From the NCBI GenBank assembly GCA_020631955.1, contig JACKGL010000005.1, forward strand, positions 1 through 47,457: a DNA stretch of 47,457 nucleotides. Direction: 5' to 3'. The notes below the pieces were generated by a model, which was given only the letters and a program-made list of their open reading frames with translations, searched no databases and was not told where the DNA came from. Of the stretch, positions 4,453 to 42,886 are shown in pieces. Both the position numbers and the translations under genes were made by a program. Position 1 is the first letter of the stretch, and each line of letters opens with the position of its first letter. The DNA comes from Candidatus Nomurabacteria bacterium. GTDB lineage: Bacteria; Patescibacteriota; Minisyncoccia; Phycocordibacterales; UBA9973.

Positions 4453-5427
4453 TTATGAATTTACAATATTTCTTGGTGTCCTTCCTTCAAAAAAATCGAC
4501 AATATTATTCGCTGCTATCTCTGCCATTTGATCTCTAGTCTCATTACTTGCAGAAGCTATGTGTGGTGTAAGAACAATGTTTTGAAGTTTTTTAAGACCG
4601 GAAGATATTTTTGGTTCAAACTCAAACACATCTAGACCTGCTCCTGCTATCACTCTATTCTTTAATGCAAACTCAAGAGCCTTCTCGTCGACAACCGGAC
4701 CTCTAGAAGTATTTACCAAAAAAGCTGTAGGTTTCATCATTTTAAGATGTTTTTCATTTATAAGATGTCTTGTAGAGTCTAGAAGAGGAACATGTAAGCT
4801 CACAAAATCTACCTGCGGTAGTAGAGTGTCAGGAGAGTCACAATAAGTAGCATCTAGTTCTTTTTCTATTTGTTCGTTTCTATTTACGTCTGTATACAAA
4901 ATCTTCATTCCAAGATTTTTTGCATATTTTGCAACACGTCCACCTATCCTACCTGTACCTATAAGACCTAGAGTCTTCCCCGCTACATCAGTTCCAATAA
5001 AATTCATTGGTGACCATCCTTTATATTTACCAGCACGAACAAATTTATCTCCTTCTACTATCCTAGTCGCCAAACAAAGCATAAGTGCGATTGTGTGCTC
5101 CGCTACAGCTTCAGAAGACATATCAGCTGGTGCATTTGCGACCACGATACCACGCTCCTTTGCTGCTGCTATATCTATATTATCGAACCCAGTAGCATAG
5201 TTTACATACAACTTTACACTTGGCGCAACTTCAAATACTTTTTTATCTATTTTGTCAGTAAGCAGAGTCAGCACTGCGTCGTATTGCTTTTTCCGCAAGA
5301 AAGAAATTATCTGTTTCTGTGTAGGGATAGAAGATTTAGGATTTACATCTACTGTATAACCTTTTTCTTTCAAAATCTTGATCCCAATATCTGGGATTTC
5401 TCTGGTGACAAAAATATTTTTACTCAT
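4453..5427 (-). CDS. D-isomer-specific 2-hydroxyacid dehydrogenase (glycerate/hydroxypyruvate reductase-like)
   Basis: GLIGTGRIGGRVAKYA Rossmann motif and C-terminal LTPHIASAS. The track ORF extends to 5469, but the ATG at 5427 (MSKNIFVTREIP) sits 6 nt downstream of a TATAAT box, so I prefer it. Confidence 0.8.
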   Translation of the reverse strand: MSKNIFVTREIPDIGIKILKEKGYTVDVNPKSSIPTQKQIISFLRKKQYDAVLTLLTDKIDKKVFEVAPSVKLYVNYATGFDNIDIAAAKERGIVVANAPADMSSEAVAEHTIALMLCLATRIVEGDKFVRAGKYKGWSPMNFIGTDVAGKTLGLIGTGRIGGRVAKYAKNLGMKILYTDVNRNEQIEKELDATYCDSPDTLLPQVDFVSLHVPLLDSTRHLINEKHLKMMKPTAFLVNTSRGPVVDEKALEFALKNRVIAGAGLDVFEFEPKISSGLKKLQNIVLTPHIASASNETRDQMAEIAANNIVDFFEGRTPRNIVNS

Positions 5428-5433
5428 ACCAAT

Positions 5434-5439
5434 ATTATA
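5434..5439 (-). promoter_or_regulatory. -10 box TATAAT exactly 6 nt upstream of the ATG at 5427 (leaderless-type promoter)
   Basis: Minus-strand sequence tataat-attggt-ATG, with no purine-rich SD in between. Confidence 0.5.
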
Positions 5440-5492
5440 ACAATTATTGATATCAATTACGAATACCAAATATTAGTAAAATAAAGCCTATC

Positions 5493-5513
5493 AATGAGCC
5501 AATGATCGGGATT
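5493..5513 (-). repeat. Orphan 21-nt copy of the tRNA-Thr 3' end (T-loop AATC through acceptor, discriminator and 4 nt of trailer)
   Basis: aatgagccaatgatcgggatt at 5493-5513 is identical to 5626-5646, which lies inside and just 3' of tRNA-Thr. Confidence 0.85.
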
Positions 5514-5535
5514 TCACGTCGTCGCAAGCTCCTCT

Positions 5536-5599
5536 TTGGAAACCACTCGGTTTCCAACGCTGCGCTGCCTTCCTCCACAGGGAAACTACCGTTTCCCTG
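5536..5599. repeat. Twin-hairpin element, copy A (two 9-bp stems with 4-nt loops)
   Basis: ttggaaacc-actc-ggtttccaa (5536-5557) and cagggaaac-tacc-gtttccctg (5578-5599). Homologous to copy B at 5949-6004, with compensatory changes in both stems. Confidence 0.75.
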
Positions 5600-5629
5600 A
5601 CACCCTTCCCTATTCAATCAAAATTAATG

Positions 5630-5702
5630 AGCCAATGATCGGGATTGAACCGATGACCTCTCCCTTACCATGGGAGTGCTCTACCAACTGAGCTACATTG
5701 GC
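5630..5702 (-). tRNA. tRNA-Thr (anticodon GGU)
   Basis: Manual cloverleaf: GCCAATG TA GCTC AGTTGGTA GAGC A CTCCC ATGGTAA GGGAG AGGTC ATCGG TTCAATC CCGAT CATTGGC T. 73 nt, no encoded CCA. Confidence 0.9.
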
Positions 5703-5781
5703 AAATAATAAACCTACAATTATTTATGCGTAGTATTATATCACAGCAAACTACCACAATAACTGAATATAGCGAAGTTGG

Positions 5782-5835
5782 TACCCAACTCCCGCCCGAA
5801 TGTACCATTCGGTACGGGCGGGGAGCTACATTGGC
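5782..5835 (-). pseudogene. tRNA-Thr 5' fragment (acceptor, D stem and D loop) split by a 32-nt GC-rich palindrome
   Basis: Sense strand: GCCAATGTAGCTC [cccgcccgtaccgaatggtacattcgggcggg] AGTTGGGTA. The flanks match tRNA-Thr nt 1-13 and the D loop. There is no anticodon or T arm. Confidence 0.7.
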
Positions 5836-5913
5836 TTATAAAGTGTCTCAATGTTATCAAACTTTTATATTTTTTCAAAGCAAAACTGCCCTGATACACA
5901 GGATAGTTTTTAG

Positions 5914-5929
5914 TGTTGCGGGTGGTGGA
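5914..5929 (-). repeat. Orphan 16-nt copy of the initiator tRNA-Met 3' end (last T-loop nt through discriminator plus CA)
   Basis: tgttgcgggtggtgga at 5914-5929 is identical to 6075-6090. Confidence 0.85.
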
Positions 5930-5948
5930 CGCTTCGCTATCTCACTTC

Positions 5949-6004
5949 TGGGAAACCCACGGTTTTCCCAATCCTTTCTCCACGGGGAAACAAATGTTTC
6001 CCCG
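5949..6004. repeat. Twin-hairpin element, copy B
   Basis: tgggaaacc-cac-ggttttccca (5949-5970) and cggggaaac-aaat-gtttccccg (5983-6004). The flanks (ctccac before hairpin 2, gac-cccttc after it) are also shared with copy A. Confidence 0.75.
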
Positions 6005-6034
6005 ACCCCCTTCTTGTTCGACTCCAACCCAAAA

Positions 6035-6069
6035 ACACAAAACACCTACTAATAAAAGTAGGTGTTTTA
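6035..6069. terminator. Bidirectional intrinsic terminator just 3' of initiator tRNA-Met
   Basis: acacctac-taataaaa-gtaggtgt, flanked by an A-run and a T-run on both strands. Confidence 0.6.
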
Positions 6070-6076
6070 TGTAATG

Positions 6077-6147
6077 TTGCGGGTGGTGGAATCGAACCAC
6101 CTTCTTCAGGTTATGAGCCTGACGAGACACCATTTCTCTAACCCGCG
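6077..6147 (-). tRNA. Initiator tRNA-fMet (anticodon CAU)
   Basis: CGCGGGT TA GAGA AATGGTG TCTC G TCAGG CTCATAA CCTGA AGAA GGTGG TTCGATT CCACC ACCCGCA A. The C1:A72 mismatch and A11:U24 pair are bacterial initiator hallmarks. Only two G-C pairs close the anticodon stem. Confidence 0.8.
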
Positions 6148-6262
6148 ATATGTGTAAGATAGTTTATAACATAAAAGTACTCATGAGACAACATAATATC
6201 TGTGATTTACCTTAAAACGCTTGAGTTTTATATGTAAACATGATATTTTATTTCTACCCTTA

Positions 6263-6399: not shown

Positions 6400-6448
6400 C
6401 TGCAGAAATGCAGTAGTACCTGCCTACCGGTTTAGGTAGGGCTCAACT
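6400..6448 (+). pseudogene. Upstream pseudo-copy of the tRNA-Asp leader plus 5' end, interrupted by a 22-nt GC-rich hairpin
   Basis: ctgcagaaatGCAGtaGTA [cctgcctaccggtttaggtagg] GCTCAACT compared with the genuine ctgcagaaatGCAGCGGTAGCTCAACT at 6471-6497. Confidence 0.7.
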
Positions 6449-42820: not shown

Positions 42821-42886
42821 AACCGTCCTTAGCTCAGTTTCCTCCAGAGGCGGACAAGGGTTGGAGCACAGAAATATTGTTTCTGC
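42821..42886 (+). pseudogene. Upstream pseudo-copy of the tRNA-Ile 5' half, interrupted by a 21-nt GC-rich insert
   Basis: aaCCGTCCTTAGCTCAGTT [tcctccagaggcggacaaggg] TTGGAGCACAGAaatattgTTTCTG. The first 19 nt are identical to 42911-42929. There is no T arm. Confidence 0.7.

Follow-up and report, generated by a model that had tools for sequence, protein, structure and literature searches.

Twin-hairpin inserts behind two tRNA genes of Candidatus Nomurabacteria belong to a gene-less insertion family of Patescibacteria that may copy its target

A contig of Candidatus Nomurabacteria (JACKGL010000005.1, assembly GCA_020631955.1), whose 47,457 nucleotides are hereafter called the window, carries on its minus strand two intact tRNA genes, tRNA-Thr(GGU) and tRNA-Met(CAU), each followed by an insert with two hairpins and then by a displaced second copy of its own 3' end. 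The tRNA-Met gene is probably that of the initiator tRNA, given its C1/A72 mismatch. The repeat behind tRNA-Thr is exact over 21 of 21 nt and consists of the last 17 nt of the gene and the four trailer nucleotides CATT, while that behind tRNA-Met is exact over 16 of 16 nt (5914-5929 and 6075-6090) and consists of the last 14 nt and two trailer nucleotides. Both start in the T loop, at tRNA position 57 for tRNA-Thr, the T loop of which is TTCAATC (positions 54-60), and at position 60 for tRNA-Met, and they end 4 and 2 nt beyond the discriminator base, respectively. These duplications had been described correctly in the initial annotation of this DNA, as had the homology of the two inserts, which can be aligned with each other, and the length of the first (112 nt); the second, however, measures 145 nt and not 144. 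The displaced tRNA-Thr end runs on into the native flank and the promoter region of a dehydrogenase gene.

The features of both copies are collected in Table 1. All family sequences are written on the tRNA-sense strand, that is, the minus strand of the window, and A denotes the local DNA that is found in more than one copy at a site. The two hairpins that had been predicted in each insert could be located in both copies, hairpin A of the Met copy with one mismatch or bulge. Two features had escaped notice. At its other end each core is bordered by an inverted, decayed version of the T arm (5612-5619 and 6016-6030), and the Met repeat, split by a 9-nt mini-hairpin, is in truth 19 nt long, GAT[AGCGAAGCG]TCCACCACCCGCAACA. 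The motif GGRAAAC-N4-GTTTYCC occurs three times in the window when up to one mismatch is allowed (both B hairpins and the Met A hairpin), against 0.03 occurrences expected by chance, and a covariance model built on 39 copies of the family finds exactly two copies in the 47 kb, those behind tRNA-Thr and tRNA-Met.

Table 1. Features of the two copies in the window, listed for each copy in tRNA-sense direction.
Feature	Position	Strand	Basis
tRNA-Thr(GGU), intact target gene	5630-5702	minus	ARAGORN; Rfam tRNA match 69 bits
Thr left copy of A, part of the working tRNA (positions 57-73 plus CATT)	5626-5646	minus	exact 21-nt repeat
Thr spacer AATTTT	5620-5625	minus	comparison with intact arms of relatives
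Thr inverted-arm remnant GATTGAAT	5612-5619	minus	reverse complement of T loop, 7/8 positions
Thr core	5514-5611	minus	covariance-model match 5499-5627, 81.7 bits, E = 3.5e-19
Thr core 5' linker AGGGAAGGGTGTC	5599-5611	minus	
Thr core hairpin B	5579-5598	minus	
Thr core linker GTGGAGGAAGG	5568-5578	minus	
Thr core variable segment	5558-5567	minus	
Thr core hairpin A	5536-5557	minus	
Thr core 3' segment AGAGGAGCTTGCGACGACGTGA	5514-5535	minus	
Thr right copy of A, displaced orphan tRNA-Thr 3' end	5493-5513	minus	exact repeat
tRNA-Met(CAU), intact target gene, C1/A72 mismatch	6077-6147	minus	ARAGORN, Rfam
Met left copy of A, GATTCCACCACCCGCAACA (tRNA positions 57-71 plus trailer CA)	6075-6093	minus	repeat comparison
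Met palindrome, 16 bp, followed by a T run	6035-6072	minus	terminator scan; comparison with expected reverse complement of tRNA end
Met inverted arm, decayed, GGGTTGGAGTCGAAC	6016-6030	minus	perfect arm would be GGGTGGTGGAATCGAAC
Met core	5939-6015	minus	covariance-model match 5918-6032, 115.4 bits, E = 1.1e-27
Met core AA	6014-6015	minus	
Met core linker GAAGGGGGTC	6004-6013	minus	
Met core hairpin B	5984-6003	minus	
Met core linker GTGGAGAAAGGAT	5971-5983	minus	
Met core hairpin A, one mismatch or bulge	5949-5970	minus	
Met core 3' end GAAGTGAGAT, T-loop-like	5939-5948	minus	
Mini-hairpin AGCGAAGCG between Met core 3' end and right copy of A	5930-5938	minus	
Met right copy of A, displaced orphan tRNA-Met 3' end	5914-5929	minus	exact repeat
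Weak, decayed terminator-like hairpin past the Met orphan copy	5889-5903	minus	terminator scan

Short-read contigs often end at copies of the element, as would be seen if the duplications were collapsed or chimeric repeats created by assembly. Both junctions of the window are nevertheless covered with 0 differences by independent Logan contigs (X3, 5350-5658 and 5656-6250; X13, 5702-6250), which come from public runs of at least four independent activated-sludge or wastewater studies; the NCBI and ENA assemblies reproduce the same junctions, and the same architecture is present in more than 50 other assemblies. An assembly artefact is refuted by these data and retains a negligible probability.

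The family was collected by scanning species-representative genomes with the 20-base pattern GGGAAACNNNNGTTTCCCNGTGGAG, which gave at least 120 loci. Among the matches listed, all but a few bear Patescibacteria names according to the record title, including Nomura-, Taylor-, Kaiser-, Wolfe- and Yonathbacteria, Paceibacterota and "Saccharibacteria". Matches in Lachnospiraceae and Planctomycetaceae share nothing with the family beyond the pattern and look like chance; one "Bacteroidetes" match (L054) lies on a 3-kb contig that is 99.9% identical to the window and has probably been misbinned. A same-strand tRNA or tmRNA gene lies 43-188 nt upstream in 54 of the 121 matches listed, as against an opposite-strand tRNA in only one, and the targets among them comprise 29 tRNA anticodon types and tmRNA. 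Protein genes also serve as targets, namely rpsI at its 3' end, and a glycosyltransferase gene and fusA at their 5' ends, the latter two being antisense to the core. In the glycosyltransferase copies the direct repeat is 42-58 nt long and reaches the start codon, and the inner boundary of this repeat lies within the inverted copy. Whether the target encodes a tRNA or a protein, the intact gene is always on the same side of the core. Cores of other genomes that lie at tRNA-Arg, -His and -Gly genes share 90-95% identity with the Met core of the window, and the covariance model gave 0 matches in about 190 kb of relatives' contigs, which carry almost no tRNA genes.

Members of the family share the layout A - turn - rc(A) - core - A. 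In it, A stands for local DNA that starts in the T loop (tRNA positions 53-60) and takes in the acceptor strand, the trailer and sometimes the terminator, and rc(A) stands for its reverse complement. In well-preserved copies the tRNA is followed by a short spacer or terminator-like hairpin, the inverted 3' part of the tRNA, two variable bases, the core, the direct copy of the tRNA 3' part and the native flank. The inverted arm, 9-28 nt long, ends in ...TCGAAC(C), the reverse complement of the T loop, and does so 12-13 nt before hairpin B in 39 of 48 copies; in 38 of 42 copies the start of the direct repeat lies 13-18 nt ahead of the tRNA end, most often (24 of 42) at 15 nt, and the repeat is exact over 12-35 nt among the family copies measured. 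On the sense strand the core is made up of GAAGGGGGTCG, hairpin B, GTGGAGGAAGG, an optional variable hairpin, hairpin A, and GGAGTGAGAT or a variant of it. The right junction is GTGAGAT in most copies and a native T loop (GTTCGAT and similar) in L003, L007, L024, L039 and L108. Both arms match the local tRNA end and hence differ at every site; they pair together, closing the core in a helix of 15-25 bp. In L083, L099 and L108 a single long palindrome starts in the T loop, and its centre forms the hairpin that separates the tRNA from the inverted arm. The transferable part is the core, of about 85-110 nt, and the target gene stays intact. The view that one family of elements inserts at a fixed position in the T loop, as had been surmised from the two window copies, is supported.

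Compared with this layout, the two copies of the window are older insertions in which the cores are intact and the inverted arms decayed. The Thr inverted arm is either short or decayed. For the Met copy, a perfect arm would comprise the T loop, the T stem and the first part of the acceptor strand in reverse complement, and I read the palindrome between tRNA-Met and this arm as both a strong predicted terminator of the tRNA gene and the likely point at which the left copy of A turns into the inverted arm. The weak hairpin past the orphan tRNA-Met end is probably the original terminator.

An empty counterpart of one site was found through the protein encoded beside the tRNA-Asp copy L026, which led to ten contigs of the same study. 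Four Logan contigs from four runs (L163, L164, L169 and L170) are without the 168-nt insert that is present in L162, the contig of a metagenome-assembled genome that corresponds to the L026 record, and their flanks are otherwise identical to those of L162 on both sides; the SRR136170xx run series contains both alleles of this tRNA-Asp site. The empty site reads ...GGGTTCAAG, then the segment TCCCTTCACCCGCGCAACGCAATAAGCCCTTCGGGGCTTTTTGCGT, then AGGCGG.... In the filled site, GGGTTCAAG is followed by a 46-nt copy of this segment, which has one C-to-T difference and includes the locus's own terminator, by TGCGCGGGTGAAGGGACTTGAAC, which is the reverse complement of tRNA positions 53-75, by GT, by the core and finally by the native 46 nt. 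The 168-nt insert thus holds a direct target copy of 46 nt and an inverted target copy of 23-28 nt. This pair demonstrates that the element is a discrete insertion, polymorphic in nature, and that the tRNA is intact before and after the event. It also shows that the arms, including the local terminator, are made from the target at insertion and not brought along, so that the core alone is mobile. TGCGT, with which the inverted arm starts, also closes the duplicated segment as its last 5 nt and is complementary to the ACGCA directly after the tRNA; a similar 5-nt overlap is seen at the turn of L039 and L096. Such an overlap would fit the start point of a 3' end that snapped back on itself.

Other empty sites were sought as follows. 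Synteny with the 2-hydroxyacid dehydrogenase gene that neighbours the Thr copy gave 32 related metagenome loci, none of them with an upstream tRNA cluster, and an exact-protein look-up of this dehydrogenase gave no record. In eight runs searched for variants of the window site, no contig skips the element; a different allele, described below, was found at tRNA-Thr instead. The sites of L083, L090, L108, L009, L075, L016 and L001 were filled, represented by a single contig, or on a contig ending at the repeat. For L039 and L029 the look-up gave no record, and a 73-nt gap in L177 is a run of Ns.

The arrangement at the tRNA ends is reminiscent of tyrosine-integrase islands and prophages of the T-loop class, which also target the T loop of tRNA or tmRNA genes, leave the gene functional and create a second 3' end at the far junction. 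An identity block extending from the T loop past the 3' end, as observed here, is the classical signature of tRNA-targeting integrases, which Williams reportedly described in 2002. The inserts might accordingly be miniature or decayed integrative elements (CIME-like), placed there by a T-loop tyrosine integrase or by serine recombinases acting at tRNA ends, which are common in these bacteria, with the tRNA-end copies as attL and attR; a miniature derivative of this type was one of the two identities put forward in the initial annotation. There is moreover a strain, 99.9% identical to the window, in which a large-serine-recombinase gene ends at the same tRNA-Thr. In this allele (L156:1-802; L153, which equals L054) the 3' end of the gene, with its Zn_ribbon_recom domain, lies directly behind tRNA-Thr; the break, at 5628/5629, is exactly at the tRNA end, and the recombinase reading frame runs antisense into the tRNA gene. 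Both alleles are present in run X18. The sequence recovered for this allele contains, however, no twin-hairpin core. In integrase islands one lineage, through its attP, matches one tRNA, whereas here a single core, 90-95% identical between sites, is found at 29 anticodon types, tmRNA and the ends of protein genes. The core has no integrase and measures only about 100 nt; the spare gene end and the arms derive from the local locus, with its own terminator among the copied sequence; the additional inverted target copy is not a product of simple att recombination; and the length of the duplication varies from 12 to at least 46 nt. Nor was any integrase, transposase or nuclease gene found to recur within 2.5 kb of the 120 loci listed when their open reading frames (ORFs) were clustered, the only recurring ones being the target genes themselves and spurious frames across the core. 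The integrative explanation is therefore very improbable, and it is largely refuted by the empty/filled pair.

The initial annotation had proposed, from compensatory changes, that the hairpins are under selection. This was confirmed on 103 distinct copies, in which 98% of the hairpin A cells are paired and six of the seven pairs have changed on both sides: 148 cells carry double changes, versus 41 in shuffles and at most 26 with slid partners. One pair of hairpin A is U-A in 54 copies, G-C in 23, C-G in 18 and A-U in 4, and the eighth pair of hairpin B is G-C in 88 copies, G-U in 11 and A-U in 4. The stems are thus selected, and covariation persists over the larger set of homologues. Several properties also set one strand apart from the other. 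On the sense strand, 20 G-T pairs are counted versus 6 A-C pairs, an excess that shared ancestry among the copies may inflate. The very stable mini-hairpin motif GCG(A/G/T)AGC, which marks the junctions and the variable site, occurs 53 times in sense and 4 times in antisense orientation in the family, at seven times the background density. Finally, the most conserved parts of the core are the single-stranded linkers GAAGGGGGTCG and GTGGAGGAAGG, which exceed the stems in this respect. Together, hairpin A covariation, G-T bias, mini-hairpin asymmetry and linker conservation argue that the sense strand acts in single-stranded form, either as RNA or as DNA.

A single-stranded intermediate is also what would be expected of a REP/REPIN or IS200/IS605 (PATE) element, moved as single-stranded DNA by a hairpin-recognising HUH tyrosine transposase, and a REP/PATE-like nature was the other identity proposed initially. 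REP, BIME and REPIN-RAYT elements and PATEs are likewise small, gene-less, hairpin-rich, strand-asymmetric and intergenic by gene ends; the two conserved hairpins with conserved flanks and the strict orientation relative to the target gene (54 to 1 among the matches listed) are in keeping with such a relationship, as are the strand-asymmetric features. By contrast with this family, however, REP and PATE elements, which are accompanied by a cognate transposase gene in the genome, have hairpins with a conserved recognition tetranucleotide and show no target duplication and no target-derived arms. Insertion by HUH Y1 enzymes (IS608, ISDra2) is not known to yield either a target duplication or an inverted target copy, both of which are present here. 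No TnpA- or RAYT-like ORF, and no reverse transcriptase, adjoins any copy in the 2.5-kb neighbourhoods of the listed loci. The proposal thus gained no positive support, and I regard an HUH-mobilised element as quite unlikely.

The same structural data could alternatively reflect a functional RNA. In this case the core and its arms would form a structured molecule of benefit to the host, such as a tRNA-like minihelix processed by RNase P or RNase Z, or a C-rich antisense small RNA that binds Shine-Dalgarno sequences, and mobility would be secondary. The conservation of the single-stranded linkers above the stems, the covariation of the stems with G-U pairs favouring one strand, and the 15-25-bp helix closing the core all speak for it. 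Rfam 15 was searched at permissive and gathering thresholds with the window region and 17 related loci: only tRNAs pass, and the best other match, a weak RsaE-like one on the plus strand, scores 30 bits versus a threshold of 79. Conversely, the window copies have decayed arms and yet intact cores, the sense-strand core sits behind a terminator, no public RNA-seq run contains the stretch, and presence/absence polymorphism together with the many multi-copy genomes points to selfish spread. A primary role as a host RNA is accordingly unlikely, though less so than the other alternatives. A hammerhead or hepatitis delta virus (HDV)-like ribozyme was also considered and set aside, as no core motifs were seen and Rfam gave no match.

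I therefore favour the interpretation that the inserts are copies of a non-coding, gene-less mobile family widespread across Patescibacteria which copies its target on insertion. Taken as a whole, including the mechanism outlined below, this stands slightly better than an even chance of being correct; that the family is a mobile insertion family can be held with high confidence, and the mechanism with moderate confidence. The mechanism is deduced from the layout, the fixed inner ends of the arms at the start of the T loop, their variable outer end and the microhomology at the turn. It would start with a staggered break, the antisense strand being nicked at tRNA position 52/53 and the sense strand 16-60 nt downstream, which would leave two 3' overhangs. 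The overhang that bears the gene end would snap back on a few complementary bases and be extended up to the boundary between single- and double-stranded DNA, which would yield an inverted arm whose end coincides exactly with the T loop and, in many cases, also a new palindrome resembling a terminator. The other overhang, ...ATCGAAC-3', would anneal to the T-loop-like GTGAGAT of the core, with which it matches at 5 of 7 positions around a central tandem G-A mismatch, and would prime copying of the core from a single-stranded RNA or DNA template, in a manner akin to target-primed synthesis. Gap filling would then produce the direct duplication. Resolution of the mismatched duplex between GTGAGAT and the T loop in either direction would explain why most copies have GTGAGAT at the right junction and five have the native T loop. 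The enzyme would act in trans. Because essential genes are hit, an insertion would survive only if its duplication extended to the end of the gene; I read the observed rule that the duplication does reach the gene end as an outcome of selection, because shorter duplications would truncate an essential gene and be lost. Mature tRNA as primer or template was rejected, for the arms carry genomic trailer bases and not CCA.

An inverted triplication with microhomology at the turn, that is, A - rc(A) - A, is also the product expected from replication template switching or fold-back repair at strongly transcribed, hairpin-rich gene ends, in which case the core would be filler and no element would exist. 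However, the same conserved and covarying core of about 90 nt is found in the same place at more than 100 independent sites in many genomes, with precise boundaries unlike those of random filler DNA. Repair alone is for this reason very improbable as the origin of the inserts.

Several points weigh against target-copying insertion as proposed, in addition to the possible inflation of the G-T excess and the lack of RNA-seq runs containing the stretch, both mentioned above. There is a single empty/filled pair, and a deletion between the 46-nt direct repeats could give the same polymorphism. In L083, L108, L016 and the Met copy of the window, the central hairpin is missing behind the right-hand copy, so that the simple picture of a duplication that includes the terminator fails in these copies. 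Lastly, the search pattern GGGAAACNNNNGTTTCCCNGTGGAG itself fixes hairpin B, which makes the invariance of this hairpin among the collected loci uninformative.

A full-text literature search found no description of such an element, and its layout could be matched to no described one, so that the family apparently represents an undescribed class. The closest working analogy may be the target-primed insertion of a non-autonomous retroelement. Like retrotransposons without long terminal repeats and short interspersed elements (SINEs), the family is short and non-autonomous, with a long, variable target duplication made at insertion and with junction microhomology, and as in SINEs the element has a 3' end similar to the nicked target (GTGAGAT and the T loop in the present case). 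Unlike SINEs, it has no A-rich tail, no reverse transcriptase near any copy, and a systematic inverted copy of the target. The 5' inversion of LINE-1 by "twin priming" is the closest parallel to this inverted copy, but it inverts element DNA and not target DNA. Integron attC sites and the attP site of CTX-phi (XerCD) likewise form a long imperfect hairpin with a structured, non-palindromic centre and seemingly a single active strand; their arms are, however, fixed and encoded by the element, IntI or XerCD recombines them with one fixed partner site, and they produce no target duplication or inversion. Miniature inverted-repeat transposable elements (MITEs) of the DDE type, such as Correia/NEMIS and the Rickettsia palindromic elements, are similarly non-coding, multicopy, about 100-150 nt long and tolerated at gene boundaries. 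They differ in that their terminal inverted repeats are specific to the family and their duplication is short and constant in length, whereas here the repeats are the target's own sequence and the duplication varies from 12 to at least 46 nt, in agreement with the earlier remark that so long a target duplication is unusual for MITEs. A more far-reaching and distinctly tentative idea is that the family exemplifies a new mode of bacterial DNA movement, in which a non-coding core of about 90 nt would enter a staggered break by copying and would build its own inverted repeats, often with a new terminator, from the target, as a SINE-like "safe-harbour" element able to persist within the ends of essential genes. 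The arms, as a tRNA-like minihelix, could then serve a further cycle, for instance by tagging the transcript as a processing substrate.

Additional arrangements of the core were encountered. A strain variant of the Met copy (run X16, record 16) has a 22-nt extra hairpin between hairpins A and B, at 5968-5972, which is exactly the variable, third-hairpin site of the family. In contig L158 (1-200), the core of the Met copy, with one mismatch, is joined to a different right arm (CCCGTAGGGTCACCA...) followed by an antisense tRNA-Cys-like gene. This join is due either to recombination between two copies in one strain or to chimeric assembly, and in both cases it implies that the same population holds further near-identical cores. 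At a tRNA-Arg(CCU) gene (L172:4994-5128, equal to L108), a second, diverged core (31 bits) lies directly behind the first, which suggests repeated insertion at one site; a second match is also present in L024 and L023. In some genomes, identical copies number a dozen or more and lie in a different context. Taylorbacteria MHSB01, for instance, has at least 12 nearly identical cores in a non-tRNA context (L006, L011, L022, L032, L040, L074, L088, L089, L111, L113, L114 and L118), flanked by units of the form CTCGCC-GAA-hairpin-GATGAATGGCGGG, and this context is either a second type of target or a composite repeat.

Gene ends are duplicated in other ways as well. At 5782-5841 of the window, the first 13 nt of tRNA-Thr are repeated 120 nt upstream of the gene (5823-5835); on the sense strand a GC palindrome of about 33 nt comes next, with D-loop-like bases beyond it. 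Here, too, a hairpin insert accompanies a duplicated gene end, but the arrangement is of a second kind and its family is not that of the twin-hairpin core. The equal spacing of the two tRNA-Thr repeat pairs, 133 nt, raised the idea of a tandem 133-nt duplication, which was dismissed, the intervening sequence being 27% identical by eye. Pseudo-copies of the 5' parts of tRNA-Asp and tRNA-Ile(UAU) are found at 6400-6448 and 42823-42880, about 70-90 nt upstream of the real genes; both are interrupted by a GC-rich insert of 20-23 nt, and that of tRNA-Ile(UAU) is exact over 17 nt. Locus L186 (1470-1670) has an apparently polymorphic 193-nt insertion in the D-loop region of a tRNA-Arg gene. The stretch includes a run of Ns and the core is different, but the logic of the insertion is alike: the rest of the tRNA is duplicated, and filler, an inverted T arm and a GC hairpin are present.

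The family accounts for an annotation puzzle in these genomes, namely orphan tRNA ends, "inverted T arms" and extra terminators behind tRNA genes. It also breaks short-read assemblies at tRNA loci and can promote rearrangement between copies. If the arms are indeed made from the target each time, then the long, variable duplication and the inverted target copy would be the products of an insertion mode outside the known transposase, integrase and retroelement schemes, and the enzyme, once found, could give a compact tool that targets tRNA T loops. For the Patescibacteria themselves, the genomes are tiny and have little room for selfish DNA, and yet the element is multicopy across the group and occupies the ends of genes for tRNAs, tmRNA, ribosomal proteins and translation factors, which it leaves unbroken.

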